NCBI GenBank assembly: GCA_030683155.1
Contig: JAUXMV010000019.1
Location: 6,422 to 70,421, forward strand
Source: Bacteroidales bacterium
Lineage (GTDB): Bacteria > Bacteroidota > Bacteroidia > Bacteroidales > F082
Direction of reading: 5' to 3'
DNA: 64,000 nt
Below are positions 28,236 to 62,170 of this stretch, piece by piece. The position numbers and the translations under genes were made by a program. The first letter of the stretch is position 1. Every line of letters starts with the position of its first letter. The notes beneath the pieces are model-generated. The model saw nothing but the letters and a program-made list of their open reading frames with translations, had not been told where the DNA came from and searched no databases.

Positions 28236-28403
28236 TGCAAAAATATTTACTTTTTGATTAATAAAACATTTTTTTAAAAAATAAATCTTTATTCAGTAAA
28301 AAACTAAATATACACATAAACAACTATATAGGAACGAAACAATTTAGAATTAATATAAATTACAAGAATTTTTAAAAAAAGTTTAAACTTAACATTTTTT
28401 ATA

Positions 28404-28411
28404 TATTTTTG
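28404..28411 (+). promoter_or_regulatory. Candidate -7 promoter box TATTTTTG upstream of susC-like gene
   Basis: Matches TAnnTTTG in the AT-rich divergent intergenic region. Confidence 0.2.
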
Positions 28412-28577
28412 CTGTTGTGTATTTTTTACACTAAGTAAAAATGAAGAATAAATGAATTAATCATCAAAAAAAAAACGAACCTATGAACAAACAGCATCTC
28501 CTCTAATTATTATCAGAATTATCATTTTTTGTTTTGTAATGTAATCTTATCACTCACTTAAATTAAACGTTATACTT

Positions 28578-31694: not shown

Positions 31695-31748
31695 TCTTGA
31701 CTGACATTTAAATAAAAAAATTAGTAGTATTCATAAAAAGATAATACA

Positions 31749-33263: not shown

Positions 33264-33303
33264 CACTTAATTTTTGGGTTTTTAAATATAGTGGTTAGTG
33301 ATT

Positions 33304-33341
33304 AAAGCGGGGCAACTCATAATGCCCCGCTTTTCGTTTTT
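33304..33341 (+). terminator. Rho-independent terminator
   Basis: The stem AAAGCGGGGCA / TGCCCCGCTTT is followed by a T-rich tract. Confidence 0.7.
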
Positions 33342-33417
33342 TCATTAATACAAACAAAAAATCATTTGGCGTTCAAATTATTTCCATCAATTTTGCAGAT
33401 TCATTAAAAATTATTCA

Positions 33418-34452
33418 ATGTATATTTCAGATACTATCTTTGGCAAACTTCCAGACGGACGAGAATCAAGATTGTTTCAGGTTGCCACCAAAAATGGATT
33501 ACAAACCAGCATTACAAATTTCGGAGGTATTATTACTTCAATAAAGATGCCTGACCGCAATGGGGTGGTGAAGGAAATTTGTGCCGGTTTTGAGAAATTT
33601 GATGACTATCTAAAACCTCATCCGCAATTTGGAGCTTTGATAGGCCGATACGCAGGCCGTATTGCAGCTGGTCTTTTTAAAATTGACGACACGTTTTATC
33701 AGCTTAATTTAAACAATCCGGACTATCAGCTTCATGGCGGCGAAACAGGTTTTCACACACGTCTCTGGGACTATCAGTTAGAAGAAAACGAAGAATCTGC
33801 AAGCATAAAACTTAACTATAAAAGCCTCCATCTTGAAGAAGGATTTCCCGGGAATTTATCTGCAGAAGTGATCTATACAATTTTTGATGATAACCGGCTG
33901 GTGATTGAATACAGTGCACAAACTGATCAGCCGACACATGTAAATCTTACCAATCACGCCTATTTTAACCTGAGCGGATTTGAAGAAGATATCAGCAGTC
34001 ATTGTCTGACCATAAACGCCGATAAATTTGTTGAATTGAATGAACTGATGCTTCCTACAGGAAAGTTTATTGACTGTGAAAAAAGCCCTTTTGAATTCAG
34101 AAATCCGGTTTTACTTTCTGAGCGAAATATTCCTTATCATATTGAGCTTGACAATTGTTTTGTGCTTCAGGAAGTTGATACAAAGAGTCCTTTGGCCATT
34201 TTACACCATAACAAGTCGGGCAGAAAGATCAATGTTTGGAGCACACAACCAGGCATTCAGGTTTATTCCGGTAATTTTCTTGATGGCAGTTTGCGTGGAC
34301 ACAACAGCCAGAAATATTTCAGACACAGTGCAATATGTCTCGAAACGCAACACTTTCCGGACAGCCCGAATCATTTAAACTTTCCTTCTACCCTGCTCAA
34401 ACCAAAGGAAAAATATCATCATATCGCTACTTTCCAATTTTGCATCGAATGA
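33418..34452 (+). CDS. Aldose 1-epimerase (galactose mutarotase family)
   Basis: Carries YQLHGGETGFHTRLW and the colinear mutarotase motifs NLTNHAYFNL and ETQHFPDSPN. Confidence 0.88.
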   Translation: MYISDTIFGKLPDGRESRLFQVATKNGLQTSITNFGGIITSIKMPDRNGVVKEICAGFEKFDDYLKPHPQFGALIGRYAGRIAAGLFKIDDTFYQLNLNNPDYQLHGGETGFHTRLWDYQLEENEESASIKLNYKSLHLEEGFPGNLSAEVIYTIFDDNRLVIEYSAQTDQPTHVNLTNHAYFNLSGFEEDISSHCLTINADKFVELNELMLPTGKFIDCEKSPFEFRNPVLLSERNIPYHIELDNCFVLQEVDTKSPLAILHHNKSGRKINVWSTQPGIQVYSGNFLDGSLRGHNSQKYFRHSAICLETQHFPDSPNHLNFPSTLLKPKEKYHHIATFQFCIE

Positions 34453-34569: not shown

Positions 34570-36651
34570 TCAATTCAGGATCACAAATTTTGAAACGCTT
34601 GTGGCTCCATCAGTAAATCTTGCTTTCAAAAAATAAGTGTCTGGATTTAGTTCATTGACATCGATGGTAAATAATGTCGAATTTATTGCCATTCCCTGAA
34701 TAAGCAAACGTCCAAGCACATCCAAAATTTCATAGGATACAATTTCCGAGTTACTTCTTAATGTTATGCTGGAGCTTGCAGGGTTTGGATACAAATTCAA
34801 TCCGGTATTGATCTCAGACTCCGGAATGCTCACAAGTTGATCGTTGGAAGCAATCCAGCTTTGGGGCAGACTGTTGTCAAGATCGAGGTCAATAAGTTTC
34901 AGGTAAGGACCATTTCCATCAGCTTGTGAAGGCCATGGCGAGGAATCAAAATACCGCACTTCGTCAATAATATTTCCCCAAACATCAGACAGTACAATGT
35001 TGTAGGATTTGTTTGACAGGTAACGGGTGTATTGTCCGAAGGCTGAAAAACCATAAAATTGTTGAAAAACATCTGCATTGCTGGCCAGTCTGATAGCCGC
35101 CCTGGGAACGACAAAAGAATTGGGGGGAAACTGATAGCTTATACCCAGCTCTTTGATATAGAACCCTGTTAAATCAACAGTCTCGTCACTGTGATTGGTA
35201 ATTTCGATAAACTCCAGATCGTCTTTAGAAAAACCCTGTGCTGACTTCGGGTGGTAATGGATTTTTGAAATAACAAGGGAAGGAATGCCTGGATTGGCGC
35301 AGTTCTGATAGTTATTCAAATTCGTATTAAGCCATGTAATTCGGGCTAAAATCCAACTTTTCATGGTATAAATATGGGTGGGATGATAGCCAATCGTTCC
35401 CCATCGCTGATTTTCTCTTTGCACAGCTTCCGAAATCAGATTGACAGTTTCATCAATTTTTGCTGTTACTGATGCATTGCTCAAAGGACCTCCTGAAGCA
35501 GCAAGTTCATTCCATCTTTTGGCCAGATAGCATTTGAATGTTGGATTGTCGTATAAATTTTTCCAGAACTTTGAACCTCTGTTATCACTGTAGTTGAATT
35601 GCCATACATTTGGATGACTCCTGTCAAAACCCCAGAAAAACAGGTCATTGCCATAAGTAAGGTTCAAATCCCATATTGGCCCTGCCCTCAGTTTTCCACC
35701 TCTGTCTTTATGAAAAAAAGTACTGAACTGATAGGCATCTACATTGGAGGCAAACTCATTGATGATCATAAAATCAATGAAAGATGGGATGTCAATCATC
35801 GTCGGAAAACCATCAATCAAAGAGGCGTTTTGTGTATTCATGGCCGTTTGAAAGCCCATAAAATGATTACGGATGTAGTTGTGCTGTTGGGTGGTAACCT
35901 CGGAAGGCTTTGGGTTTTCGTGAATATAATCTACCAACCCATTGACCCCTGCATAGGAAGGCATTGTCCATGCAACAGGATCTCCACCTGTGGTTTTATC
36001 AGCCTTCGTGATATACCCACCTGTAAGGTTGGGAAGGGTATTATCGGAAGTTGTAAGCTTGACCATATTCAGTCTGTCAGTATCAATTTTTATTTTCTCC
36101 ATGAAAGTATACAGACCTTTATAATCGCCATTAACAATCACTTCACAGTATACGCCACGCGTAGAGTAATTTCCGATTTCACGCGATAAGTAGTATGATA
36201 AATAATCGCGAATTAATGAAGCATCATAAGCCAGTGCATTTAAAATCCAGTCATTTTCGCTGGGCATTCCTAAAATTGACACATTGTTGTTGGAGACATT
36301 ATCGCTTAAGCGTGTTGTTAAACCATATGGTTTTTTTGGAAGCATTTGCGAGGTTGAGCCTCTTGTTTCGATTCCGATTCTGCCGTTATAGTTCAGATAG
36401 GCTGCTGTATTTTGATCCGAGACGTAGTTGCGTGATCCATCCGGCCTAAAAATCACTTTCATGTTTCCGGGCACTTTAGGTTCATCCGGAATTTCATAAG
36501 GTTGCCCGGTAACAGGGTTGATATCAGTGGTAATAATTACAATCGGCAAATTGCTGCTCGTGAAATTCTGTGCAAAGCCAGTGAGCGACAAAAGAAAAAG
36601 AGCAAGAAGGGAAGCGATTAAATTAATCTTTTTAATAGAAGTTACAGTCAT
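34570..36651 (-). CDS. CotH kinase-family protein with lamin-tail domain and T9SS C-terminal sorting domain
   Basis: Has a signal peptide and a CotH-like core. An LTD-like segment (ISKIHYHP...LEFIEITN) follows. The C-terminal segment (LNLYPNPASSSITL...) is of Por secretion tail type. Confidence 0.8.
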   Translation of the reverse strand: MTVTSIKKINLIASLLALFLLSLTGFAQNFTSSNLPIVIITTDINPVTGQPYEIPDEPKVPGNMKVIFRPDGSRNYVSDQNTAAYLNYNGRIGIETRGSTSQMLPKKPYGLTTRLSDNVSNNNVSILGMPSENDWILNALAYDASLIRDYLSYYLSREIGNYSTRGVYCEVIVNGDYKGLYTFMEKIKIDTDRLNMVKLTTSDNTLPNLTGGYITKADKTTGGDPVAWTMPSYAGVNGLVDYIHENPKPSEVTTQQHNYIRNHFMGFQTAMNTQNASLIDGFPTMIDIPSFIDFMIINEFASNVDAYQFSTFFHKDRGGKLRAGPIWDLNLTYGNDLFFWGFDRSHPNVWQFNYSDNRGSKFWKNLYDNPTFKCYLAKRWNELAASGGPLSNASVTAKIDETVNLISEAVQRENQRWGTIGYHPTHIYTMKSWILARITWLNTNLNNYQNCANPGIPSLVISKIHYHPKSAQGFSKDDLEFIEITNHSDETVDLTGFYIKELGISYQFPPNSFVVPRAAIRLASNADVFQQFYGFSAFGQYTRYLSNKSYNIVLSDVWGNIIDEVRYFDSSPWPSQADGNGPYLKLIDLDLDNSLPQSWIASNDQLVSIPESEINTGLNLYPNPASSSITLRSNSEIVSYEILDVLGRLLIQGMAINSTLFTIDVNELNPDTYFLKARFTDGATSVSKFVILN

Positions 36652-38013: not shown

Positions 38014-38556
38014 CTATAAATGCCCGGCTTGCTCAAGCTGCTGCCTGCACTTACTGCAATATGAAGTTGATTTCTGATCGATGTCTTCCACATAGGTGCT
38101 CACTTTCATCACACAATCATAAGTATGGCAATGAATCAAACCAAAGCAATGTCCAAGTTCGTGAATAATTTCTTTGGCAAAACGACTGTATAACAAGGCT
38201 TCATCGCGTGGCAAGCCATAGCGTTCGTTTCCAAGCCTGTAGAGCGATGCAATGCCAGAGTTTCCATTCAAATATGCTTGTCCGAAAATATATGTCAGAA
38301 TGGGAATATATAAATCAACTGCAACCAGGGCTATCGTTATTCTATCATCATAAGCAAGGTTTGATTCAACATACTTGAGCAATGTATTTCCGTTGTACTG
38401 TTTTCTAACAGGATCGAAGTGAGATTCCAGATCATAATGTTCCCTTTTAAAATTCACTCTGCCCTTTAGTTCATTTTCAACCAGAGCAGCCACATGCTCA
38501 AGGATTTCCTTTTCGAAATACCCAAGTGTGATAAGTGTTATTTTTTTTAAGCCCAT
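38014..38556 (-). CDS. Archaemetzincin-family zinc metalloprotease
   Basis: Carries HELGHCFGLIHCHTYDCVM followed by CSKC. This matches the archaemetzincin signature HExxHxxGxxHCxxxxCxM...CxxC. Confidence 0.85.
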   Translation of the reverse strand: MGLKKITLITLGYFEKEILEHVAALVENELKGRVNFKREHYDLESHFDPVRKQYNGNTLLKYVESNLAYDDRITIALVAVDLYIPILTYIFGQAYLNGNSGIASLYRLGNERYGLPRDEALLYSRFAKEIIHELGHCFGLIHCHTYDCVMKVSTYVEDIDQKSTSYCSKCRQQLEQAGHL

Positions 38557-38660: not shown

Positions 38661-40001
38661 TTAACCGTTTTGTTTCAAGTCGTACTTTTTAATTTTATTA
38701 TACAGCGTGACTCTATCAACCTGTAGTGCCTTGGCAGCGCGTGATACATTCCATTCATATTTATCAAGGATAAAAAGAATATGCTTTTTTTCAAGATCTT
38801 CAAGACTTTCAACCTGACTCACTGCCACATCTTTATTCAGTGGAAGATCTTTCACTTTTATTTCTTTGCCATTTCCAATTACAATAGCACGTTCAATCAT
38901 ATTTTCAAGCTCTCTGACATTTCCTGGAAAATCGAATTCCTGGAGTCGTTTGATTGCTCCTGACTCAATGCTGACGATGTTCCGACTCATCGAAGTACAG
39001 AATTTCTTTATGAAATGATCTACCAAAAGCGGAATATCTTCTTTTCGGCTGCGCAAAGGCGGGATCACTATATTCACAACATTGAGCCTGTAATAAAGGT
39101 CTTCGCGAAAAGTTCCGTTATCAACCATTTTTTTCAGATCTCTGTTAGTGGCACAAATGACACGGAAATCAGAATTTATCAGCTTGTTTCCACCAACGCG
39201 CATAAAGCTTTTTGATTCCAATACACGCAAAAGTTCAATCTGCATTTTAGGCGAAATTGTTGCTATCTCATCCAAAAAAATTGTGCCATTGTCGGCCATT
39301 TCAAAGCGGCCTTTTCTGTTGTAAACAGCTCCTGTGAATGCACCTTTTTCGTGACCAAACAATTCGCTTTCGAGCAAACTTTCGCTTAATGCGCCGCAAT
39401 GTACGCTCACCATAGGAAAAAATCTTCGCGAAGAATTTGCGTGTATTGCTCTAGCTATCAATTCTTTACCCGTACCACTTTCGCCATTGATAATGACAGA
39501 GGCGCTTGACTGTGCAACACTTTCAACCTCTTTCAGCAAATTTCGCATGGCTTCACTATCGCCAATGATATCTTCTACATTTTCGAGTGTGACAACGCGA
39601 TCGCGCAGTCGTTCGTTTTCTGAAGCCAGAGTTATTTGCTTGGAAGCATTTCGAATCAGGTGCGAGAGGTCATCTGGGTCAAAAGGTTTTGTTACATAAT
39701 CAAATGCTCCGTCTTTGAGTGCTTGAACGGCAGTATCGACTGTCGCAAAAGCTGTCATAACGATGACAACGGCATCAGGTTTTAGTGTTTTAATACGTTT
39801 TAGCATTTCCAATCCGTCCATGCCTGGCATTTTGATATCTGTCAGAATGATATCAAAACTTTCATTTTCAAGCAGTGCCAGTGCTTCTTTTGCGCTTTCA
39901 GCACATGCAACGTTATAGCCGTCCTCGAGAAACCAGTTATGCAGGGAATCTCTTACTGATTCTTCATCATCAACGACAAGGAGTGATATTTTCTTTGACA
40001 T
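38661..40001 (-). CDS. Sigma-54-dependent response regulator (NtrC family)
   Basis: Has a receiver domain and an AAA+ domain with GESGTGKE and GAFTGA. The C-terminal Fis-type HTH is present. Confidence 0.92.
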   Translation of the reverse strand: MSKKISLLVVDDEESVRDSLHNWFLEDGYNVACAESAKEALALLENESFDIILTDIKMPGMDGLEMLKRIKTLKPDAVVIVMTAFATVDTAVQALKDGAFDYVTKPFDPDDLSHLIRNASKQITLASENERLRDRVVTLENVEDIIGDSEAMRNLLKEVESVAQSSASVIINGESGTGKELIARAIHANSSRRFFPMVSVHCGALSESLLESELFGHEKGAFTGAVYNRKGRFEMADNGTIFLDEIATISPKMQIELLRVLESKSFMRVGGNKLINSDFRVICATNRDLKKMVDNGTFREDLYYRLNVVNIVIPPLRSRKEDIPLLVDHFIKKFCTSMSRNIVSIESGAIKRLQEFDFPGNVRELENMIERAIVIGNGKEIKVKDLPLNKDVAVSQVESLEDLEKKHILFILDKYEWNVSRAAKALQVDRVTLYNKIKKYDLKQNG

Positions 40002-40003
40002 GT

Positions 40004-41695
40004 CTAGGCTTCTTTGTTTTTAATAAGGTTAAAAGTAATAGCGAAAGTTGTTCCGTGACCAACTTCAGACTCAATATTTATTTTTCCTTTATGGTTTTGG
40101 ATGATTCCATGAACAATAGCAAGACCCAGTCCAATGCCACTTGCCTCATGCTTGGTCGAAAAGAAAGGCTCAAAAATATGCGGAAGATTTTCTTTAGCAA
40201 TACCTTTCCCGTTGTCGATGATCTCTATCTGAACAGTGTCTTCTGTAGGGTTTGATGTTTTAAGCAGAATTTCGCCCTGAACCCCGGGCGAAATGGCCTC
40301 ACTTGCATTTACAATCATCGCCAGACAAGCTTGCTTTATCTGATTAGGACTGCATTTGATAAGATCGCTTGTTGCCTGAAAGTGTGTGTTAAAAGCCACG
40401 TTGGCAATCTTCATCGGATGCTTCATTAGCTCATAGGTGCCAGCTAAAATTTCATGTAAATGGCAGGATTCGTGATCATTTTCGTCTTTTCTTGAAAAAT
40501 CGAGCAAACCTTTTACAATATCGCCACACCGCTTTGTTTCACCTTCAATCAGTTTCAGTTTTTTCAGCATGGAATCCCTTTTAGCATCATCGATTTCAGG
40601 ATTGGCCAATTGCTTATGCACAAGTTTGGTATAAATAAGGATGCCTGAAAGAGGATTATTCAGCTCATGAGCAACGGAGGCAGATAATTTACCTAGTGAG
40701 GCTATTCGCTCTATTTGAATTAGTTCGTTCTGAACCGCTCCAAGCTCCTCTGATTTTTTTTGCACCTTATATTCAAGCTGTTTTGACCAGTTTTCAAGCT
40801 CAAGATTTGCTGTTTGCAATTTATCAAGCATTTCGTTGAATGCAAGCGAAACCATGCGCATATCCTGAAGTTGATTGGGTACTATTTTCAGCCTTTTATT
40901 TGTATCACCTTTAGCAACAGCCAAACTTGCATCAACCAATGCATGTAAAGGTATTTTGATATTTACCCTTGTGAAAAGCACTAAAATAAATGAAAGTGTA
41001 AATGTTATCAAAACTGCTATCAGAAAATAACGTGTGGAAGATGCCTTGATAGCATTATCAAATGAACCCAATGGCATTTTTATTATCAATGAGCCTAAAA
41101 CACGCTCTTCCTTATCATGTGCATGGCAATCGGCGGTATAGCATGAGGTCTCATTCAAAATAGGATTTCTGATAAGAAGATAACGTTGGCTATTTTCAAG
41201 CATATGCATACTGCATGAGCTTTCAAGTTCAATAATACGATAAGATTTTTCCTCACCGGGGAAAAGTGAGTTTAAATCATTATGACAATTTGAACAATCA
41301 GGATCGTGGTTGTGTGAAGAGGTAGGTGAGTAAGACGAATAAACAAGATAATCAGTATTATCATAAAGATTTACTTCGTCAATACCTGTAAGATTGTTAA
41401 TGATATCAAGGGTATTATACAGCTCTGTTTTGTCGTTTCTAAGCATTGAATGATAAAGAGCTCCTTCAACAATAGAACCAATATTACCTCCATTTTCATG
41501 AATCATGGTCATTAAGAACCTCTCATTGACAGATTTAAAAATGATTATATAAGACCCTAACAAAAAAATAGACAGCATCGCAATAATAAGAACTACCCTG
41601 CTGTATACTGATGAATGAAAGCGCACAAATCTGGGATATAACTTATTATCAGTGAGGATAGCCCTAAGCTTTGCTTTAATACTGTAGCTTTTCAT
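40004..41695 (-). CDS. Sensor histidine kinase with periplasmic CXXCH-containing domain
   Basis: Two TM helices flank a domain of about 170 aa that carries CSNCH and [12 protein letters not shown]-like linker, the H-box [10 protein letters not shown] and an HATPase domain follow. Confidence 0.88.
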
Positions 41696-41727
41696 TTTTG
41701 TGTTTTTTTTCGCTAATTAAAATACTT

Positions 41728-41775
41728 ATGTGCTTTCACCAGTCAAGAGTTTGCAACTGATAGATGAAAGCACAT
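41728..41775 (-). terminator. Hairpin between the GcvH-fold gene and the kinase gene
   Basis: A perfect 11-bp inverted repeat (ATGTGCTTTCA / TGAAAGCACAT) encloses a 26-nt loop. There is no clear T tract. Confidence 0.3.
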
Positions 41776-41858
41776 AAAGCAGTCTGAAAATATGAGACTA
41801 TCATAATACCCTGTTTTGATCCCGCAATATCGGAAAAAAAACAGTTCGTCAAAGAGGT

Positions 41859-42593
41859 TTATGCCTCAATTTTTTGAAAAGGTCTTCCGAGAAATTCGTT
41901 TTCAAAATCATTCCATACCTCTTGCGGTAGTTCGGTCAAAAGATGTTCGCGCAATTCACCACCATCCTGAAGTGTTTGTGCCATTTGAGTTGCACTGTTC
42001 TTCCAGAGTGATGACATTAAAAAGTCTTTAAAGCGAACCAATTCGGATGAAGTCCAGCTAATAGCTTCTTCAGCAATTACACAATCAGCTGTTTCTGAAA
42101 TCCAGCTTTTAGGCTTAATTTCATACATCCAACCCTTTCCATAGGTATCTTCCATCATTTTTGAGGCATCATCTTTCAGTTCACTGTTGAATTTTCTGAT
42201 GCTTCCGGATAAAGGAGAGAACACCTTTATTTGTTTTTCTTTCTGATGAATAATTGCAATCAGATCACCTTTCACAACATTGTCACTAGCCTGTTTCATT
42301 GGTTCGACTGAAACAAGGCCAGTAATGCGCAACATGAGTTCATCTAATCCAAAGCGAGCCATGCCAGATTTATACATATACATCCACATATGGTTCGGGC
42401 TGTGATAAACTCCGGATGGAATGTTGAGCCTTTTGATGCTAAGAACACTTAGTGCTTCATGAAATTTTTGAGAAATCTTTGATCTCTTGTTGAGTATGAT
42501 CCAAAATGGGACGAGCAACAGAAAAAAAGCTACTGTAACCAGGTATTCTATACCCTTGGTTTCGAAGATGTTGGTGTAATAAAACGCTTCCAT
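41859..42593 (-). CDS. Membrane-anchored GcvH-fold protein (paralog 1)
   Basis: An N-terminal TM helix precedes a GcvH-like core (HMW...GLD...GD...SPLSG...GWMYEIKP). The C-terminal tail is LQDGGELRE...VWNDFENEFL. Confidence 0.75.
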   Translation of the reverse strand: MEAFYYTNIFETKGIEYLVTVAFFLLLVPFWIILNKRSKISQKFHEALSVLSIKRLNIPSGVYHSPNHMWMYMYKSGMARFGLDELMLRITGLVSVEPMKQASDNVVKGDLIAIIHQKEKQIKVFSPLSGSIRKFNSELKDDASKMMEDTYGKGWMYEIKPKSWISETADCVIAEEAISWTSSELVRFKDFLMSSLWKNSATQMAQTLQDGGELREHLLTELPQEVWNDFENEFLGRPFQKIEA

Positions 42594-42678
42594 GATATTA
42601 TTATTTTTTGAGGTTAATTTTTATAAATCTTTTTTAAATAAATGTCTGCTTGTAATCTTTAAAATAGCGTTGACTTTT

Positions 42679-43905
42679 TTAATGACCTTTTGCCCAGTCT
42701 GGTCCATTGCGCAACACAGGCATTCTAAGGATAATCCATCTGAAGACCCAGATTTGAATCAAAATAATTGCCAGAGAAACGGTAAGCTCTTGCCATGTAG
42801 GAACATATCTCACTGGTGCATCAATATTATAGGCAATCAGAGATACATTTAAACGGTTGATTAAAATGCCCATAAGTGTTATTACTGATGAAACTATAAC
42901 CATCGTAGCATTTTTCGTTTTATAGCTATACATGAACAGAAACATTGGAAGAATAACCAATCCAATCATTTCAAGCAGGTACCAATTGCCCCAGCCAGTT
43001 CCCATGTATGCGAAATATTTCTCATGCACAAAAATGATGATATGCATAAAAACATATGAAAAGAGTCCAACAGAGCAAATCCCGGCAAGACCAACAAGAA
43101 TATCATCCTTTGCTTTAATCATTTTTTCTGTGAGTTGAAAAGCAAATATTTTCCAGCTTATGGCAACAACCACAACAACAAGGGATAGACCGCCAAATAC
43201 ACTTTGGATCACGAACATAAGTGGCATATAATTATTGTACCACAATGGGTGAATCTTACCTTTTGCAAGCAAGAATAGCGCGCCAATACCACCCTGATGC
43301 AAAACTGAAAGGGTGATGCCAAAAACGACTGCAACAAGCGTGATGCCGGTAAGGAATTTATGCATTTTTCTTGCGTTTAGCCATGCTGCAATAGATGGTG
43401 AAAACTCAAGGAAAAGACACAAAATGTATAGCATAAAATGCCAGGCTACCAAAAACAAAATCGAACTAACACCATAATCATTACCAATGATAACATTGAA
43501 AATGTCAAGTGGACGACCCAATTCAAGAACGAGCGCTGCTGAATAAAATACGTAAGCCAGCAGTCCGTTCAATACAGCAATTTTCAATACAGGCTCATAA
43601 CGTTTTATGTGTAAAACATGGGTCATGAAAACAAGCACATAGGCTCCACCAGCCATGGCCACACCAACGACAACATTAAAAGCCTTCCATATTCCCCAGG
43701 GCACATCCTGTGAAAGATTTGTTACTGCTTCGAGTCCGAACCTGAAGCGATATACGATTAGTCCTAATCCAAGAAGAATAATCGGGAGGGTAATGATATT
43801 GAAGGCGGTGAATATTTTAGTCTTTGGCTTAAGTTCACTGATTAAAAACCGCCATGTTTTATTCTCTTTATTGTCGAGATATTGGATTGTATCTGTCTGG
43901 TTCAT
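42679..43905 (-). CDS. NrfD/PsrC/HybB-like polytopic membrane protein (quinone-interacting subunit)
   Basis: 408 aa with about 10 hydrophobic helices. It overlaps the upstream FeS gene by 4 nt, as in NrfCD, DsrOP and HybAB pairs. Confidence 0.8.
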   Translation of the reverse strand: MNQTDTIQYLDNKENKTWRFLISELKPKTKIFTAFNIITLPIILLGLGLIVYRFRFGLEAVTNLSQDVPWGIWKAFNVVVGVAMAGGAYVLVFMTHVLHIKRYEPVLKIAVLNGLLAYVFYSAALVLELGRPLDIFNVIIGNDYGVSSILFLVAWHFMLYILCLFLEFSPSIAAWLNARKMHKFLTGITLVAVVFGITLSVLHQGGIGALFLLAKGKIHPLWYNNYMPLMFVIQSVFGGLSLVVVVVAISWKIFAFQLTEKMIKAKDDILVGLAGICSVGLFSYVFMHIIIFVHEKYFAYMGTGWGNWYLLEMIGLVILPMFLFMYSYKTKNATMVIVSSVITLMGILINRLNVSLIAYNIDAPVRYVPTWQELTVSLAIILIQIWVFRWIILRMPVLRNGPDWAKGH

Positions 43906-44768
43906 ATTTCGTCCTCCTCAGTAATGGTAGAAGTTGATTTTGTTGCTTGATAAACACCCAGTAAAAATGTAGGTAATAGTAAATCTACCGGAGCAATGCT
44001 TGAAATAAAGCCTTTTGTTAGTCCTGGAAATGATTTCTTTTGAATCTTCATGTTAAACCCAAGTTCTTCAAACGGAACAGGTGAAAGATACATCCATGAG
44101 GTTCCGCCAGCTTCATGTTCACCATAAATATAGTCAACATAAGTATCAGGATTTTCAATGATTCTAGTCCGGGCTTCCTTTATGAGGTCGCTGCGTTTTC
44201 CGTAGGTCAATGCTTCTTCAGGACAAAAATATGAACAGGCAGGAATTTCGCCTTCTGCAAGACGATTAACACACATATCACATTTAACAACTTTAGGATT
44301 TGTACTCTTATATTCAAATTTTGGAATATCAAAAGGACATGCAATCATGCAGTAGCGGCAGCCCATGCATTTGTCTTCACGCCAGATAACAGGGCCTTCC
44401 TGAGTTTTATACATGGCCATTGTAAGGCAAGCTGCTGTACAGGCCGGTTCGCTGCAATGTCTGCACTGATCTTTAAAAGCGACCATTCCGATCGAAGTTT
44501 CGTGTCTGTTTACAACTGTGCGACAAGTTTCATCTAGTTTTCGTGGTGGCGGATTTCTTGGAATATCAGGCATTTCAGCTTCGTGTGCTTCGGCGCAGTC
44601 GTACTCGCATCCGAAGCATCCAACGCAACGCGACATATCATACAGCATTCCATTGAGTTCCGTGCCATTGTCTGAAAAGGCCTCTGATGCAGTGCTTACT
44701 TTTCCTACCGAAAGTGCTACTGCAGTAGCGCCCATGGCTTTGAAAAATGTTCTTCTGTTAAGGGACAT
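43902..44768 (-). CDS. Tat-exported 4x[4Fe-4S] ferredoxin-type subunit (HybA/NrfC/DsrO-like)
   Basis: The twin-arginine leader is MSLNRRTFFKAMG. There are four Cys clusters (CVGCFGCEYDC, CRHCSEPAC, CMGCRYCMIAC, CDMC...C..FC). A hydrophobic segment sits near the C-terminus. Confidence 0.85.
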   Translation of the reverse strand: MSLNRRTFFKAMGATAVALSVGKVSTASEAFSDNGTELNGMLYDMSRCVGCFGCEYDCAEAHEAEMPDIPRNPPPRKLDETCRTVVNRHETSIGMVAFKDQCRHCSEPACTAACLTMAMYKTQEGPVIWREDKCMGCRYCMIACPFDIPKFEYKSTNPKVVKCDMCVNRLAEGEIPACSYFCPEEALTYGKRSDLIKEARTRIIENPDTYVDYIYGEHEAGGTSWMYLSPVPFEELGFNMKIQKKSFPGLTKGFISSIAPVDLLLPTFLLGVYQATKSTSTITEEDEI

Positions 44769-44818
44769 ACTTTTAATTTTTTATATTGGGGAGATGGTAG
44801 TTGTTGAGAAAAACAGGA

Positions 44819-46414
44819 TTACGATAATGTATTCAAAAATTCATTCTGAAAATCTTCCCACACTTGTGGTTCGAGATCTGCCATAAAACCTTCTCTTAAT
44901 TCACCACCATCCTGAAGCACTATTTGCGCATATTGTGGTGAACTGGCTTGTAATGCCCTTGCGATAAAATCCTTAAGTCTGTTAAATTCTGATTTCAACC
45001 AAACAGTATATTGATCTGCCATCAACATGAAATCAATTTCACGTTTCCAGTTGGTTGGTTCAATTTTATAGAGCCAGTTTTCAACGAAAGAATTTCCTTC
45101 TACTGGTTGATTGTTTATTGCAACTATGGTTCCTGAAACCGGAGAATTGAGCGTGATTTGCTTTCCACCCTGAATGATTGTTACAACGGCTTCACCTTTA
45201 TTTACTTTTTCACCTTTTGCAAGTGTTTTAATACGACTTACAGACCCAATTACATGATGCAGAAAGTCATCCATTCCTACTGCAACATTACCGTTGTTTT
45301 CCATGAATGCCCATGTATGAGATTTATCATAGAGTAGTCCTTTCGGAGTTTCAACTGAACTAAGATTAAAAACACCATCTGCTGTTAAAGCATCAATTTC
45401 TGTAGTTTGACTTCTGTCGCGAAACAACCATGTAAGCAATAATCCAAATAAGATAAATCCGCCGATTGTGATGATCAAAAGAAGGATCCATGCCTGATCG
45501 TTTTCTTCGGAAACAGTTTTCAGTTCAGGTGCATTAAGATTTCTGACTGCAGCAAGTTTTTCGTGTGAAGTGAGCGCTACAAAACCGTTTGCTGATAAAA
45601 CATCTTGTCCCTCAGTCATCATCCAGGAAACAAGGCTTGTTTCCATTGCATTCATTTCACTTTTGGTAGAAACAACATGAATGTTTCTTCCAAGTTGCTT
45701 TGGATATCTGCCAACCCATAATGCATTTGCAAAAGTTTCTACTGAACCGTAAAAATCTTCTGCAGATTCAATACGTCCGTTGTTATTTCTGTCGATTGGC
45801 AATAAAGCAAATCCGTCAACAAAACTTTGATCAGCATTAAGAATATCTGAAAGCATGCAGAAACCGATTATTTCATTGTTGTTTTTTAGATTGGAAAAGA
45901 AATCATTCTTCGAATCAAATGGCTTCCTGGTTAAAGGAATGGCCTCTATGTTCAAATATTCTGATAGACCATCAAGTACTTTTACATTTGAAAAACACAA
46001 AACAGAATTCTCAGCCGTGAGCATTTCAGTGATTTTTTGAAATGATACACCTTGCTCCATATACATTCCAAATTTTGGGTTGGCTGTATTGATAACAGGA
46101 ACGATCGCATCGCGACCAACTAAAAGCTGCCAGGCGTAAGATTCGGATTGCTTTCTCAGGTTATCGGTATAAACAAGGTTTAAACCTTCAACAGGTTTTA
46201 CTCCATCTGAAATATTCAGCGTAAATTGTATCTCTGGATTGATGCTGATGTAATCATTGGCAAGGTCAGATGCTAACTGCTCCAGTCCGGGAGCTGCTGA
46301 TAAACGAATGTTCTTTTCTGACTGTCCAAACATTGTGAGACTAAATGCCATCATGATGCTGATAAAAATGATCCGGGTTTTCATGGCTGTAATTTTTATT
46401 TGATGAGTTTTCAT
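44819..46414 (-). CDS. Fusion protein: periplasmic PstS-like binding domain, TM helix, cytoplasmic GcvH-fold domain (paralog 2)
   Basis: Has a signal peptide and a PBP-like region (VGRDAIVPVINTANP). The TM helix spans aa 308-331. The GcvH-like core is HTW...GMD...SPVSG...NWLYKIEP. The tail LQDGGELRE...VWEDFQNEFL is the same as in paralog 1. An alternative start is the ATG at 46384. Confidence 0.75.
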   Translation of the reverse strand: MKTHQIKITAMKTRIIFISIMMAFSLTMFGQSEKNIRLSAAPGLEQLASDLANDYISINPEIQFTLNISDGVKPVEGLNLVYTDNLRKQSESYAWQLLVGRDAIVPVINTANPKFGMYMEQGVSFQKITEMLTAENSVLCFSNVKVLDGLSEYLNIEAIPLTRKPFDSKNDFFSNLKNNNEIIGFCMLSDILNADQSFVDGFALLPIDRNNNGRIESAEDFYGSVETFANALWVGRYPKQLGRNIHVVSTKSEMNAMETSLVSWMMTEGQDVLSANGFVALTSHEKLAAVRNLNAPELKTVSEENDQAWILLLIITIGGFILFGLLLTWLFRDRSQTTEIDALTADGVFNLSSVETPKGLLYDKSHTWAFMENNGNVAVGMDDFLHHVIGSVSRIKTLAKGEKVNKGEAVVTIIQGGKQITLNSPVSGTIVAINNQPVEGNSFVENWLYKIEPTNWKREIDFMLMADQYTVWLKSEFNRLKDFIARALQASSPQYAQIVLQDGGELREGFMADLEPQVWEDFQNEFLNTLS

Positions 46415-46442
46415 TGATTTCTTTTTTTCTTGTCTCTATATA

Positions 46443-46458
46443 GACGAAAACCATGCCA
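46443..46458 (-). promoter_or_regulatory. Weak sigma-54 promoter candidate
   Basis: The minus strand reads TGGCATGGTTTTCGT against the consensus TGGCACG-N4-TTGC. The -24 GG and the -13 G are present, but the -12 C is T. It lies 30-60 nt upstream of the possible starts of the 44819-46414 gene. Confidence 0.25.
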
Positions 46459-47054
46459 AACTCATTTTTTGATACTTAACATGTTGTTTTTCAATTATTT
46501 ATATTAACACTTGTTTAACTTTTAAACACTTCGTACTGTTGAATTATTATACACTTTTTTCTCACTTGTTGTTTATAACGTTGATTTACAATTTATTACA
46601 CACTTTGTTTAATTTATATACAGCTGTATATTTTTTCATCAGTAGTGTTTTAAAATACTGATTTTCTGATACATACAAATATATAAATTCGTGAAATATT
46701 GAGGCCAGAGGTGTTTTTATGCGGGGAGGCTCATTGAGAATGTGTGCAAAAAGAAATGATTTCTTTTACACTTTTTTTTAATTATTCAAGAAAATTAGCG
46801 GGGATTTAATAAAAAGACATGCCGTCACACCAGGTTGCATTACTTTGTGCAAAACAGAAAAAGAATGCAAATGCATTCAACCTGAAAGAATTTATATGTA
46901 ATGTGGAACCCTGAAAAATGAGGAATCAAGAGTTATTAATTGCGAGCAAATGCATTCTGCCAATGCAATCATTTAGTAAATCAGGCAATCTTTATCAACT
47001 GGATCTATCAAAACAGCACGATCGAAAGATTTATTTATGCAATTTTACAACATC

Positions 47055-48410
47055 TTACATAAAATCCATTATGCTTCCTGAGATTTGCATCAAAGAAATT
47101 TCAGCAATTTTTGTCAGATATTTAATGGATATAAGTCGTTCTTCAGCATCAAGAAGACTCTTTTGAACTTCCCTGAGCTCAAGTCCGGCCAGATTGCCAA
47201 GTTTATAGCGCTCAAGGGCAATCTGTAGGTTTTCGCGAGCTACAGCCAGATTCTTTTCTTCAAGTCGGAGGAGCCTGATATTATTTTCGTAGGCAAAGAA
47301 GATGGTCAGCAGATCGGCTTTCACTTCCTGTTCAACCTCTTTAAATTGAATGTTCGTGTTTTCAATTCCAATGCGTGCAACACTTTTTTCGCGCTTTCTG
47401 TTTGAACCATCAAATAAATCCATTCCAAGGCTAAGCCCATAATTCATTCCATGCGAACGTTGATTCAGATAATCACCCATGTTATATCCATTATAATTAT
47501 ACCCGTAACCTGTCGATAAATTAAGGTAAGGATAAGAGCGGGATTTGATAATTTGATAATCAAGTGTTGAAATAATTTGATTTTTTGACGCTATCTGCAA
47601 GCTTGTATTAAAAACAATGGTTTTTCGAAGCAGCTCATCGTAAGTCAGCTTTTCATTGATTTGAATCAATGTATCTTTTAGGACAATATTCTTTCCCAGA
47701 TCCTCCGAAGCCATTAATTCGTTAAGTCTTATCTGGGCAGAACGGAGCACTGCGCTCTGCCGCGAATACCTTGAGCTATCCGCATTGAGATAAACGAGTG
47801 ATTGCAGCAGTTCCAGTTTGGATGCACCACCCAGTAAATAACGCTGTTCATCAATCCTGACACGTTCACGTGACAATGAGATTGCATATGCCAGATTCTT
47901 ATATAAAGTAAGCTGCTCGATGTAATAATTATACTCAGCGGCAATGCGTCCAACAAGATTTTCAACCGCCATCTGCGTGCTAAGACCCTCTAATTCATTC
48001 AGCTGACCAAGCTTTCGATAGGTATTCTGCACCTGAAACCCCCTGAAAATAGTCATCCCAAGATTGACAGAAGCCGCAGCGGAAGTATTATGGATTCCGG
48101 TAGAAGATGTTTCGCCCCCATCCCGTAAATTTCGGTTGACAGCGTTCACTGTACCTCCAAAACTGTTGTTTGCTGTTACACTTGGCAACATTCCGGCATT
48201 TCCATACGTATAATTAATTGCAGAAATTTCTTCACGATTTCTTACAGCCTGTAATCCAAAATTATTATCTAAACCGATCTGAATACAGCGGCTCAAATCA
48301 TATAAATCCTGAGAATAAACAGGAGCAAGGCTATAGAAGTAAAGAATCGGAAAAACTATAAGTCTGATTCCTACCGGCAATTTAAACTTCGACAGGATAA
48401 TTTTGTTCAT
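47055..48410 (-). CDS. TolC-family outer membrane efflux protein
   Basis: 451 aa with two repeated OEP halves. It is the last gene of the RND operon. Confidence 0.85.
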   Translation of the reverse strand: MNKIILSKFKLPVGIRLIVFPILYFYSLAPVYSQDLYDLSRCIQIGLDNNFGLQAVRNREEISAINYTYGNAGMLPSVTANNSFGGTVNAVNRNLRDGGETSSTGIHNTSAAASVNLGMTIFRGFQVQNTYRKLGQLNELEGLSTQMAVENLVGRIAAEYNYYIEQLTLYKNLAYAISLSRERVRIDEQRYLLGGASKLELLQSLVYLNADSSRYSRQSAVLRSAQIRLNELMASEDLGKNIVLKDTLIQINEKLTYDELLRKTIVFNTSLQIASKNQIISTLDYQIIKSRSYPYLNLSTGYGYNYNGYNMGDYLNQRSHGMNYGLSLGMDLFDGSNRKREKSVARIGIENTNIQFKEVEQEVKADLLTIFFAYENNIRLLRLEEKNLAVARENLQIALERYKLGNLAGLELREVQKSLLDAEERLISIKYLTKIAEISLMQISGSIMDFM

Positions 48411-51400
48411 GTGTAATGTTTTTTGATTCGCTTGAAATAAGAAGGTAAATAGCTGGCACTACATACAAGGTAAGAAATGTTGAAAGTGTTAGTCCGCCAA
48501 CAACGGCAACCCCCATAGCCACGCGGCTTTGAGCACCTTCGCCCCAGCCAAGGGCAAGTGGCAAAACACCAAGTACGGTTGACAAACTTGTCATCAGAAT
48601 TGGTCTGAACCTTGCGGCAGAAGCATAGCGAATGGCGTTGAGTTTGTTCATCCCTGCTTCTTTACGCTGATTGGCAAATTCAACAATCAGGATCCCGTTT
48701 TTTGAAACAAGGCCTATGAGCATGATAATGCCAATTTCGCTGAAAATATTCATCGTGATGTTAAAGTACCACATAAAAAGCAAGGCTCCGGTGATCGCCA
48801 GAGGAACTGTCATCATCACGATGATAGGATCTTTGAAACTTTCAAACTGTGCAGAAAGCACTAAAAAAATCAAAACGATTGCCAATAAAAAGGCAAACAT
48901 GAGGCTCGAAGAGCTCTCCATAAAATCTTTAGAATCGCCTGAAAGTGCAGTCCTGAAAGAATCGTCAAGCACCTTCTCTGCGATTTTGTCCATCTCCTCA
49001 ATACCCTGACTGATGGTTTTTCCATCTGCCAGACCTGAAGAAATTGTAGCGGCAACAAAACGGTTGTAACGATAAAGTTGAGGAGGTGCAGTTGACTCCT
49101 GCAAAATGATGAAATTATCAAGCTGAATCATATTGCCTTTATCATTTCTCACATACAAAGACTTCAAATCCAGTGGCTTATTTCTGTCTTCGCGGGCAAG
49201 TTCACCTAAAATCTGGTATTGTTTGCCGTTCATAATAAAATAGCCAAATCGCTGTCCGCTCAATGCCAGCTGCAAAGTCTGTCCAATATTTTGTGTGGAA
49301 ACACCTAAAAGATTGGCTTTATCGCGATTGATAACAATCTGAAGCTCAGGCTTTGTAAATTTCAAATTCACATCGGCCATAACGAAAGTAGGGTTATCCT
49401 GAACTTCTGCCATAAATGCAGGGAGCACTTCGCGAAGTTTATCAATGGTGGGCGCTTGCAGCACATATTGAATTGGGAGACCTGCCCGACGACCTCCAAA
49501 CGTTGATTGCTGAATAACATTAGCCCTTGAACGTGTCATTTTTCTTAACGCTGCCGAAAGTCTATTCGCAATCTCTTGTTGTGTTTCATCTCTTTCAGAA
49601 GGATCGACCAAAGTTACGCGGACAAAACCACCTCCACCCCAAGCTCTTTCTGTAATCTTATCATAGTCCGGAATGATTTTTTCTATCAATTGCGCAACCT
49701 CAGTGATATAAGTTTGGTTAAACTCATAAGTGGAACCTTCCTGTGAGGACACATTTACGTTGAATGAAGATCTGTCTTCAAGTGGAGCCATTTCAGCAGG
49801 AATATTTTTATAAAGAACATAAATCAACACAAAAGCTGACCCTAGAATTGCTATAGCAATATATTTTTTTGCAAGAAATGTATCAAGTGACTTTTGATAA
49901 GCATTGTTCAACGCAATAAAATACTTTTCAGATGCATTATACGCCTTGCTTCTTTTATGTCTGGTTTTCAAGAATTTAGTTGATAACATGGGCGTAAAAG
50001 TAAGGGCCACAAAGGAGGAAATCGCTACTGCGCCAGCAATCACAATGCTAAATTCCCTGAATAGTCTTCCGGTCATTCCTTCCAGAAAAACAATCGGAAT
50101 AAACACTGCAACAAGTGTGATTGTTGTTGAAATAATGGCAAAAAATATTTCATTCGAACCACTGATTCCTGCTTCAAGCGGGGTCATTCCCTGCTCAATT
50201 TTGACATAAATGTTTTCCATCATCACAATGGCATCATCAACAACAAGACCAATGGAAAGAACGATGGCAAGAAGTGTAAGAACATTAATGGTATAGCCGG
50301 CGACGTACATGATAAAAAAGGCTCCTACCAATGAAATTGGGATAACCAGAATCGGTATGATGGTGGTACGCCAATCGCGCAGAAAGACGAAAATGATAAT
50401 TATAACCAATAAAAATGCAAGGTATATGGTTGACTGCACTTCCTTGATTGATGAACGTATATATTGCGTGTTATCGAAACCAACATCATACTGCACATCG
50501 TCAGGCAGGTTCTTTTTTATGTATTCTAATCTTGCGTAAATTTCATCTACAATATCAATATGATTGGCTCCGGGCTGAGGAACTATTACTGCAGCAACCA
50601 TAGGAATTCCATTCATCTTCATTATTCCGCGCAAATCTTCAGGCCCAAGTTCTGCTCTTCCAATGTCGCTAACTCTAACAATTTGATCGCCTGTCTGCCT
50701 TAAAATGAGACTGTTGAACTCCTGTGGAGTCGTCATCAGCCCCAAAGCCCTGATCGTAAGTTCAGTATTTGTTCCCTCAATACTTCCGGCCGGAAGCTCA
50801 ACATTTTCTCTTAGGATTGCATTTCTAACATCAAGTGGTGTCATTTGGTAGCCTGCCAGTTTTGCCGGATCAAGCCAGATGCGCATTGCATAACGCTTTT
50901 CGCCCCAAATCATAACAGCGCTTACGCCCGAAATGGTTTGCAACTGTTCTTTAAAAGTTAGCTCAGCAATTTCTGAAATTTCCAGAAGTGACCTTTGCGT
51001 GCTTTTCACCGCAATCATCATAATAGGACTTGCGTCAGCATCGGCTTTTGACACTGTTGGCGGATCGCAGTCGCGTGGCAGAAAACGTTGTGCTTGTGAT
51101 ACTTTATCCCGCACATCATTGGCGGCAGCTTCCATATCAACCGAAAGTTCAAACTCAACAGTGATATTACTGCTCCCTTGTCTGCTGCTGCTCGTAAGGG
51201 TGCGAATACCGGGTATGCCATTGATTGACTGCTCCAAAGGTTCTGTAATCTGCGTTTCAATCACGTCAGAGTTTGCGCCGGGATAAGAAGTCCGGACAGA
51301 AATTATGGGTGGGTCGACGCTTGGAAACTCTCTGACGCCGAGATATGTCATGCCAATCAAGCCAAAAAGAAGAATAACCAATGAAAAGACTGTGGCCAGA

Positions 51401-51435
51401 ACAGGCCGTTTTATGCTAATGGATGACAAACTCAT
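48382..51435 (-). CDS. RND efflux transporter permease (AcrB/HAE1-like)
   Basis: 1017 aa. The N-terminus SIKRPVLATVFSLVILLFG and a 12-TM architecture are typical of AcrB-type pumps. Confidence 0.92.
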   Translation of the reverse strand: MSLSSISIKRPVLATVFSLVILLFGLIGMTYLGVREFPSVDPPIISVRTSYPGANSDVIETQITEPLEQSINGIPGIRTLTSSSRQGSSNITVEFELSVDMEAAANDVRDKVSQAQRFLPRDCDPPTVSKADADASPIMMIAVKSTQRSLLEISEIAELTFKEQLQTISGVSAVMIWGEKRYAMRIWLDPAKLAGYQMTPLDVRNAILRENVELPAGSIEGTNTELTIRALGLMTTPQEFNSLILRQTGDQIVRVSDIGRAELGPEDLRGIMKMNGIPMVAAVIVPQPGANHIDIVDEIYARLEYIKKNLPDDVQYDVGFDNTQYIRSSIKEVQSTIYLAFLLVIIIIFVFLRDWRTTIIPILVIPISLVGAFFIMYVAGYTINVLTLLAIVLSIGLVVDDAIVMMENIYVKIEQGMTPLEAGISGSNEIFFAIISTTITLVAVFIPIVFLEGMTGRLFREFSIVIAGAVAISSFVALTFTPMLSTKFLKTRHKRSKAYNASEKYFIALNNAYQKSLDTFLAKKYIAIAILGSAFVLIYVLYKNIPAEMAPLEDRSSFNVNVSSQEGSTYEFNQTYITEVAQLIEKIIPDYDKITERAWGGGGFVRVTLVDPSERDETQQEIANRLSAALRKMTRSRANVIQQSTFGGRRAGLPIQYVLQAPTIDKLREVLPAFMAEVQDNPTFVMADVNLKFTKPELQIVINRDKANLLGVSTQNIGQTLQLALSGQRFGYFIMNGKQYQILGELAREDRNKPLDLKSLYVRNDKGNMIQLDNFIILQESTAPPQLYRYNRFVAATISSGLADGKTISQGIEEMDKIAEKVLDDSFRTALSGDSKDFMESSSSLMFAFLLAIVLIFLVLSAQFESFKDPIIVMMTVPLAITGALLFMWYFNITMNIFSEIGIIMLIGLVSKNGILIVEFANQRKEAGMNKLNAIRYASAARFRPILMTSLSTVLGVLPLALGWGEGAQSRVAMGVAVVGGLTLSTFLTLYVVPAIYLLISSESKNITHEQNYPVEV

Positions 51436-62161: not shown

Positions 62162-62170
62162 AATTTGTAT

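Follow-up and report, generated by a model that had tools for sequence, protein, structure and literature searches.

Pairs of NrfC-type iron-sulfur proteins and NrfD-type membrane subunits are, to our knowledge, thought always to serve a catalytic subunit, and we know of no NrfD protein with a cofactor able to pass electrons to the cytoplasmic face of the membrane. In Desulfovibrio, Hmc/Qrc and the periplasmic hydrogenases exchange electrons with small multihaem cytochromes. Among signalling systems, the response regulator of the Hox and Aio systems is an NtrC-family activator, and the Wal operon closes with a metallohydrolase gene. Here, we describe a seven-gene cassette in which a pair of the NrfC/NrfD kind is encoded together with a two-component system, located in a 64,000-nucleotide stretch of a Bacteroidales genome (assembly GCA_030683155.1, contig JAUXMV010000019.1, positions 6,422 to 70,421; hereafter the window). 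In order, the cassette encodes a large GcvH-fold protein with a periplasmic PstS-fold domain (bigG), an iron-sulfur protein (FeS), an NrfD-family subunit (NrfD), a small GcvH-fold protein (smallG), a histidine kinase (HK), a response regulator (RR) and a metallopeptidase of family M54. The cassette is real and so far undescribed in the searchable literature. Coordinates are window positions unless another locus is named, and every feature of the window cassette lies on the minus strand.

Results

A conserved gene order without a catalytic subunit

A one-genome-per-species collection was scanned for relatives of bigG, which are encoded at no fewer than 555 loci (at least 555), and the best 80 were inspected. 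All 80 belong to Bacteroidota, including Prolixibacteraceae, Lentimicrobiaceae, Draconibacterium, Tangfeifania and Mariniphaga, and the closest relative among them is the metagenome-assembled genome CROMO_A_64 (89% identity). All loci examined come from metagenome-assembled genomes. When the open reading frames (ORFs) of all loci were searched with the window proteins, 65 loci proved to reach the end of the cassette, and 60 of these, each from a different species, have the canonical order bigG, FeS, NrfD, smallG, HK, RR, M54 (two are frameshifted). Protein identity across the canonical loci is 32–45% and the genes are intact. Recurrence of one order at 60/65 complete loci is far beyond chance. 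Homologue look-ups showed that the genes surrounding homologous loci are unrelated to one another, and clustering of all flanking ORFs revealed no extra conserved gene family, yielding only antisense artefacts and clade-specific synteny.

The six co-oriented minus-strand genes reported in a first-pass annotation of this DNA are all present as ORFs where it placed them, and the GcvH-fold paralogues it saw beside the FeS/NrfD pair are a conserved feature of the neighborhood (60/65 complete loci). The unit is larger, however, than those six genes: it also includes the M54 gene (38014..38556) and an enhancer and promoter region (46444–46641). The annotation had further noted that no catalytic partner lies near the pair, which holds beyond this genome, as no hydrogenase, cytochrome or molybdoenzyme was found among the genes of the window and the 80 related loci do not have a catalytic subunit as a consistent member.

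A signalling core with an exchangeable redox block

The remaining complete loci are variants of the canonical order: three consist of bigG-HK-RR-M54, one of bigG-smallG-HK-RR-M54, and one of bigG followed by an [FeFe] hydrogenase and HK-RR-M54. The three minimal loci are flanked by housekeeping genes, and because the nearest relatives of each are canonical loci, the FeS-NrfD-smallG block was lost independently, at least three times. FeS and NrfD alone were lost in one further lineage, where smallG and bigG-HK-RR-M54 are retained. Since bigG is kept with HK-RR-M54 in loci lacking FeS and NrfD, it belongs to the signalling core. The cassette therefore has an invariant core (bigG, HK, RR and M54) and an exchangeable block, which is FeS-NrfD-smallG, an [FeFe] hydrogenase or nothing.

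In the hydrogenase variant (locus L005, 8810–13297) FeS-NrfD-smallG is replaced by a Tat (twin-arginine translocation)-exported [FeFe] hydrogenase with a fused small-subunit domain and complete H-cluster motifs; the locus is otherwise syntenic with L087 (8811–14582), which has the canonical block. We considered whether this variant might be common and rejected the idea, as the two closest bigG relatives looked up have the canonical block. Two ORFs make up the kinase of L005, perhaps through a frameshift or a long-read error. In the Bacteroidales clade containing L005 and L087, the gene immediately upstream of bigG encodes a tetrahaem cytochrome c of 179 aa, an indication that ordinary redox partners in the periplasm are encoded at other sites.

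An FeS/NrfD pair outside the Hmc and Hyb families

The FeS gene (43902..44768) encodes a predicted Tat-exported, tail-anchored 4x[4Fe-4S] protein of the HmcB/HybA type (Pfam, NCBIfam, hydropathy), with a Fer4_11 match of 71.5 bits, the Tat signal NRRTFFK, four cubane cysteine motifs and a C-terminal transmembrane helix. It overlaps by 4 nt the gene for an HmcC/HybB-like NrfD-family membrane subunit (42679..43905) with approximately 10 transmembrane helices, assigned by the same methods (PF03916, 58.4 bits against a cut-off of 25.8; ~10 hydrophobic segments). The first-pass description of a Tat-exported four-cluster ferredoxin overlapping a 10-helix NrfD-like protein by 4 nt was thus correct in every part. 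By hidden Markov model (HMM) score, and as a polytopic protein paired with a four-cluster periplasmic FeS subunit, the membrane subunit falls within the NrfD/PsrC family; the pair is a predicted quinone module.

The best NCBIfam matches are HmcB and HmcC, followed by HybA and HybB, and all four remain below their equivalog cut-offs (HmcB, 301 vs 420 bits; HmcC, 325 vs 550; HybA, 201 vs 263; HybB, 204 vs 450). Neither the multihaem cytochrome HmcA nor HmcDEF was found in the window or the 80 related loci, and no [NiFe] hydrogenase, as accompanies HybAB, is encoded near the pair. By these profile scores and neighbors, the pair is assigned to the NrfC/NrfD kind and falls outside both Hmc and Hyb.

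Two membrane-anchored GcvH-fold paralogues

The bigG gene (44819..46414) encodes a signal peptide, a periplasmic PstS-fold domain, a transmembrane helix, a cytoplasmic GcvH-fold domain and a C-terminal tail, as delineated by Pfam, AlphaFold2, Foldseek and a 35-sequence alignment. The listed start of the ORF (46384–46414) is probably 10 codons early: nearly all homologues start at MKT(R/K)I, equivalent to Met11 of bigG, which makes Met11 (ATG at 46384) the likelier start. The AlphaFold2 model has a predicted local distance difference test score (pLDDT) of 81, and the tail is helical in it.

The periplasmic domain (aa 32–300, 45515..46321) is a type-II binding-protein domain of the PstS/ModA fold according to Foldseek and profile matches, with 4jwo, 4omb and 4gd5 matched at TM-scores of ~0.6 (E-values 1e-11 to 1e-10). 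The first-pass annotation of a PstS-like domain is therefore supported at the level of fold, and by PF12849 (PBP_like_2) matches in many bigG orthologues, but Pfam gave no match to the window copy even at E <= 10; the other families it had named (GCV_H, NrfD and Fer4_11) were all recovered by HMM searches of the window proteins. The Ser/Thr/Gly-type phosphate motifs GSTS and GSxxG are not kept in bigG, where profile alignments with 4h1x and 4pqj place SSPE and non-conserved residues at these positions. The domain does carry an EF-hand-like loop, D208-R-N-N-N-G-R-I-E-S-A-E219 (45758..45793), identified with the first 12 positions of PROSITE pattern PS00018. The loop (D-x-N-x-N-G-x-I-[DE]-x-x-E) occurs in 81/82 bigG proteins and forms invariant alignment columns.

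A transmembrane helix (aa 308–330 in the model, 45425..45493; hydropathy peak 310–328) connects this domain to the cytoplasmic GcvH-fold domain (aa 357–474, 44993..45346), delimited with Foldseek and alignments, which scores 51.9 bits against the Pfam GCV_H model (cut-off 22.2) and superimposes on 1onl with a TM-score of 0.85 and a root-mean-square deviation of 2.0 (Foldseek). The smallG gene (41859..42593) encodes a conserved N-terminal stub with a transmembrane helix, followed by a cytoplasmic GcvH-fold domain (GCV_H, 46.1 bits, same cut-off) and the tail (Pfam, alignment). The two proteins are 31% identical over 221 aa (E = 9e-36), with the tail LQDGGELRE...VW-DF-NEFL lying inside the aligned stretch, and are thus the paralogues with a GcvH-like core and a common tail that had been recognized from the sequence. 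The best-conserved part of smallG is its N-terminal 35 aa, i.e., the stub and transmembrane helix, in which NCBIfam found nothing, including in a test for an HmcD-like anchor. As this helix is conserved and the transmembrane sequence of bigG is not (35-sequence alignment), a specific intramembrane contact by smallG is suggested.

The tail (aa 455–531 of bigG, QDGG...VWEDFQxxF, 44822..45052) is specific to the family: no relative was found in Pfam or NCBIfam, nor with a tail profile in the PDB. It occurs in 485 clusters among 1.84 billion representatives, C-terminal every time, and among the best 150 the complete proteins form one class of ~240 aa and another of ~560 aa.

A hairpin lysine is invariant in both paralogue families (K418 in bigG, codon 45161–45163, within an invariant G417-K418 hairpin; K120 in smallG). 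The canonical lipoyl lysine was defined as the K of xVK eight residues before the P of SPxxG, and in three ungapped GcvH alignments the invariant lysine lies at +1 from it, with an invariant glycine (G417) at the canonical position. Lipoylation depends closely on where exactly the lysine stands in the turn. Because the lysine is out of register and a glycine takes its place, canonical lipoylation of these domains, and hence a swinging-arm role, is doubtful. Both proteins also remain below the NCBIfam GcvH cut-off (54 and 50 bits vs 117), and no glycine-cleavage (gcvT/gcvP) or sHdr genes were found at the surveyed loci.

The first-pass annotation had proposed that the GcvH-fold and binding-protein domains replace the catalytic partner of the FeS/NrfD pair. 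This idea is not supported: bigG persists in three lineages lacking FeS-NrfD-smallG and in the hydrogenase swap, and the displaced lysine, the missing phosphate motifs of the PstS-fold domain and the tetrahaem cytochrome c gene of one clade speak against it as well. As bigG does not depend on FeS/NrfD and the hairpin lysine is displaced, the GcvH-fold proteins look like membrane subunits or regulators and not like a substitute catalytic site.

A conserved putative promoter and enhancer upstream of bigG

A sigma-54-type -24/-12 promoter sequence, TGGCATGGTTTTCGT (46444..46458), lies upstream of bigG and is the sole intergenic match in the 64-kb window. The corresponding pattern TGGCAY-N5-TTGR was found upstream of bigG at 72/78 loci, compared with 0.3 expected from shuffles. 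Further upstream, a 17-bp palindrome, TGTTKA-N5-TMAACA, is present at 72/73 loci (3.6 expected) at fixed distances of ~69, 93, 163 and 181 bp from the -24 element, and the window holds all four copies: a perfect palindrome match at the -69 position (site 1, TGTTTAAAAGTTAAACA, 46512..46528), single-mismatch copies at -93 (site 2, TGTATAATAATTCAACA, 46537..46553) and -163 (site 3, TGTATATAAATTAAACA, 46606..46622), and a copy with two mismatches at the conserved -181 position, here 183 bp from the -24 element (site 4, TGATGAAAAAATATACA, 46625..46641). Palindromes combined with a -24/-12 layout are standard for promoters that depend on a bacterial enhancer-binding protein. We infer that the adjacent activator binds the palindromes. 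The strict sigma-54 consensus TGGYAY-N5-TTGCH was also tried and rejected, as it matched only 3/84 upstream regions, the conserved -12 element reading TTGA. A scan for sigma-70 promoters and terminators was uninformative for a Bacteroidota genome.

A haem-motif kinase, an NtrC-type activator and an M54 peptidase

The kinase (40004..41695) consists of a transmembrane helix, a periplasmic sCache/PDC domain with c-haem motifs, a second transmembrane helix, and HAMP, HisKA and HATPase domains (Pfam). Its periplasmic sensor domain (aa 55–222, 41030..41533), delimited with AlphaFold2 and Foldseek, was modeled with a PDC/Cache fold at a pLDDT of 77. Foldseek matches of the model include the WalK ectodomain (TM-score 0.68), with a WalK-YycH model as top match, the CusS sensor domain, and GSU0935 and GSU0582, to which the alignments show 13–16% identity. 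GSU0935 and GSU0582 are Geobacter sensor domains that bind c-haem. At the sequence level, sCache_4 matched weakly in 12/34 kinase members, Pfam returned nothing significant for the sensor domain of the window kinase, and a sensor profile searched against PDB sequences found no match.

Across 70 sequences, among them those of the minimal and hydrogenase variants, the sensor motifs C134xxC137H138, C161xM163 and C185x4C190H191xH193 do not vary. The first-pass annotation had described a kinase with CXXCH motifs in its periplasmic domain; haem motifs are indeed present there, but only one of them is a CXXCH, the other being a CX4CH. A PDC fold with a conserved CXXCH, as in c-haem PAS/Cache sensors, makes the kinase a probable haem-binding sensor.

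The response regulator (38661..40001) is an NtrC-type sigma-54 activator with a receiver, an AAA+ domain and a Fis-type helix-turn-helix (Pfam: Sigma54_activat at 234.7 bits, Response_reg and HTH_8), and GAFTGA is visible in its translation, so that the earlier assignment of an NtrC-type activator directly downstream of the kinase agrees with both. Receiver, GAFTGA-bearing AAA+ domain, helix-turn-helix and a partner HisKA kinase together constitute an NtrC-type two-component system, for which the best NCBIfam models are AtoSC and ZraSR.

The last gene of the cassette (38014..38556) encodes a cytoplasmic, archaemetzincin-type M54 metallopeptidase (PF07998, 88.2 bits vs 24.4), in which the HExxHxxGxxH motif is present as HELGHCFGLIH and is accompanied by cysteine pairs. 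Archaemetzincins are little studied in bacteria. The M54 gene follows RR, or a frameshifted remnant of RR, at 65/65 loci reaching this position. A 163-bp gap opening with a weak hairpin and T-run separates smallG from the kinase gene in the window, with similar gaps at other loci; HK-RR-M54 may thus be transcribed from a separate promoter.

Exploratory co-variation between cassette proteins

Co-variation was explored by comparing distance matrices of nine protein parts across 59 loci after removal of the shared background. The top residual correlations were found for the periplasmic part of bigG with NrfD (0.46), the cytoplasmic part of HK with RR (0.42), RR with M54 (0.42), NrfD with smallG (0.39) and FeS with the kinase sensor (0.38). 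HK and RR are a known interacting pair. As a hint only, these values place NrfD, smallG and bigG in a membrane sub-block and HK, RR and M54 in a cytoplasmic signalling one, and would have FeS contact the sensor in the periplasm.

Surroundings of the cassette in the window

Directly upstream of the cassette (47055–52559, minus strand), ORFs of 451, 1017 and 375 aa have translations that read as a TolC/AcrB/membrane-fusion resistance-nodulation-division (RND) efflux operon. A hairpin with T-run at 46863–46878 divides these RND-like ORFs from the cassette, and other species have a different upstream neighbor. On the other side, the gene at 34570–36651 (minus strand) encodes a secreted protein that combines a CotH-kinase domain, a lamin-tail domain and a C-terminal sorting domain for type IX secretion; it lies next to a glucan-utilisation region (19650–34452). 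The latter comprises minus-strand genes for GH3, an aldo-keto reductase, a GH94 phosphorylase, an MFS_2 transporter and an NrtR-like Nudix regulator, followed on the plus strand by ORFs of 1038 and 504 aa, which resemble SusC and SusD in size, and by an ORF (33418–34452) whose translation reads as an aldose 1-epimerase. At the start of the window (85–3871, plus strand) are a kinase of 1016 aa, in which several PAS domains accompany a His_kinase (LytS-type) domain, and, after it, a LytTR response regulator. At its end, a low-GC block (59400–64000; GC 0.33–0.37) with a type I restriction-modification methylase HsdM (60704–62161) and an AAA_21/AbiEii-like ATPase (63064–63990) is probably a defence island.

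Discussion

The first-pass annotation suspected an undescribed redox or signalling module under sigma-54 control, and the HMM assignments, the conserved neighborhood and the lack of a consistent catalytic subunit all support such a module. Tentatively, we favor the view that it is a self-contained, autoregulated cassette for periplasmic redox sensing and relay, driven by an enhancer and a sigma-54-type promoter. The kinase would read the redox state of its periplasmic haems, and the activator would bind the palindromes and switch on the bigG operon. The HmcB/HmcC-like pair would then form a haem-less wire between low-potential periplasmic carriers, which may be small multihaem cytochromes, a hydrogenase or the kinase's own haem domain, and the menaquinone pool, acting either as an induced outlet for electrons or as an antenna that brings the sensor haems to the redox level of the quinone pool. 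Both forms of the exchangeable block are of kinds that trade electrons with small multihaem cytochromes in Desulfovibrio, and a cytochrome of this sort adjoins the cassette in one clade. We envisage that smallG docks to NrfD via its highly conserved transmembrane helix and that bigG, with its periplasmic binding-protein domain and EF-hand loop, is a membrane-spanning accessory of the sensory complex, the GcvH-fold domains of both serving as cytoplasmic interaction or regulatory modules instead of canonical lipoyl swinging arms.

Several points weigh against this view. The -12 base is A and not C in 58/72 promoters, giving TTGA rather than the canonical TTGC. The case for haem attachment to the kinase sensor is built on motifs, and the five cysteines and three histidines might bind metal instead. 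Co-variation is noisy and confounded by shared phylogeny, and the expected FeS-NrfD pair is not among the top scores. Neither the use of a GcvH fold nor the role of the M54 peptidase is accounted for, and the proposal fixes neither the direction of electron flow nor the physiological partner. Finally, our literature searches found no paper or experiment on the cassette; a review of NrfD complexes has no such complex among those it lists, and searches on archaemetzincins and on GcvH/NrfD/sigma-54 returned nothing relevant.

Alternatively, by analogy with regulatory hydrogenase-HoxJ-HoxA, the whole cassette could be a pure sensor, an input apparatus whose real regulon lies elsewhere, with FeS-NrfD or the [FeFe] hydrogenase acting only as a redox antenna that equilibrates the kinase haems with menaquinone or H2, respectively. 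The best co-variation partner of FeS is the kinase sensor domain, and the usual docking partner of HmcB-type proteins is a multihaem cytochrome, the sensor being the only haem-motif domain of the cassette; moreover, the block is interchangeable with a hydrogenase and the core persists without it. On the other hand, a four-cluster protein and a 10-helix subunit would be costly for sensing alone, and antenna genes would not be expected behind a strongly regulated four-site enhancer promoter, an arrangement usual for effectors. We regard this alternative as unlikely. A bolder version, also unlikely in our estimation, is a two-component system wired to the respiratory chain, in which the interchangeable antenna (an HmcBC-type quinone module or a periplasmic [FeFe] hydrogenase) would poise the c-haems of the Cache kinase, while the GcvH-fold proteins, possibly through a non-canonical modification of the +1 lysine, would feed cytoplasmic redox or metabolic state into the sigma-54 switch.

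We consider improbable the proposal that both GcvH-fold domains are modified swinging arms, exchanging reducing equivalents or a bound substrate with FeS/NrfD and, with the periplasmic binding domain, standing in for the catalytic subunit. The close GcvH fold (TM-score 0.85), the hairpin lysine invariant in both families, the membrane tethering beside NrfD and the NrfD-smallG co-variation would suit it, and there is precedent in the LbpA proteins, which bind lipoate in sHdr sulfur oxidation (PMC6067878). Against it, all three GcvH alignments put the lysine at +1 with glycine at the canonical position, the cassette has no lipoate ligase, Lpd, cytochrome b or HdrD-like subunit, and bigG persists without FeS/NrfD; nor do NrfD proteins, as far as we know, have a cofactor reaching the cytoplasmic face. 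We are similarly doubtful of a ZraPSR/Cpx-type system for envelope, metal or Ca2+ stress, in which the sensor would bind metal, bigG would be an induced binding or feedback protein and FeS-NrfD a facultative detoxifying reductase. Such a system would fit the best-scoring AtoSC and ZraSR models, the EF-hand loop in 81/82 bigG proteins, the CusS sensor match and the logic of ZraP, itself a sigma-54-induced periplasmic accessory protein; however, CXXCH and CX4CH with invariant His and Met are a signature of c-haem attachment, and the hydrogenase swap and adjoining tetrahaem cytochrome favor redox over metal stress. That FeS/NrfD is merely the orphan remnant of a decayed HybAB or HmcBC pair, with the GcvH-like genes as unrelated neighbors, would account for a window without a catalytic gene, but is hardly credible, being contradicted by the conservation survey (intact genes in identical order in 60/65 species at 32–45% identity) and by a promoter and enhancer common to the loci.

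A conserved NrfC/NrfD-type pair without a catalytic subunit is tied here to a new membrane-anchored GcvH-fold family, a metallopeptidase and a two-component system of haem-motif kinase and sigma-54 activator. If the wiring model is true, the cassette would show how Bacteroidales of anaerobic sediment, groundwater and serpentinite sense and use periplasmic reducing power (H2, cytochromes or the quinone pool), and the GcvH fold would be seen to serve for more than lipoyl-carrier chemistry. With so sharply defined a promoter and enhancer, the cassette is directly testable in cultured genera, should they be carriers, with Draconibacterium, Prolixibacter, Mariniphaga and Tangfeifania as candidates.

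Compared with described systems, the FeS/NrfD pair is closest to HmcBC/NhcBC and HybAB, which share the Tat-exported, tail-anchored four-cluster FeS protein and the overlapping, cofactor-less 10-helix NrfD-family subunit. Unlike these, the cassette has no HmcA/NhcA cytochrome, HmcDEF or hydrogenase, scores below the equivalog cut-offs, flanks its pair with two GcvH-fold membrane proteins and resides in Bacteroidales instead of sulfate reducers or enterobacteria. The sensor resembles those of the Geobacter chemoreceptors GSU0582 and GSU0935 in its PDC/Cache-like periplasmic fold and covalent-haem motif, but is part of a histidine kinase and has two haem motifs (CXXCH and CX4CH) and an extra invariant cysteine. 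With GcvH and LbpA, bigG and smallG have in common the Pfam GCV_H domain and the fold, and they differ in being membrane tethered, in the extra 75-aa tail and in the glycine at the lipoyl position with lysine at +1.

Other likenesses are analogies only. In the regulatory hydrogenase-HoxJ-HoxA (HupUV-HupT-HupR), AioXSR and TorTSR systems, a redox enzyme or periplasmic binding protein likewise provides an accessory input to a kinase, whereas the accessory of the cassette is a transmembrane-anchored PstS-fold/GcvH-fold fusion and its redox partner is HmcBC-like or an [FeFe] hydrogenase. Single-pass membrane proteins are encoded with a PDC-sensor kinase in WalK with YycH/YycI too, although the auxiliary proteins and regulator class are unrelated to those of the cassette, and ZraPSR has a similar accessory logic. 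As far as the searchable literature shows, the transmembrane-anchored GcvH-fold family with its tail, the fusion to a PstS-fold domain, and the obligatory coupling to a kinase, activator and peptidase are new and set this cassette apart from each of these systems.

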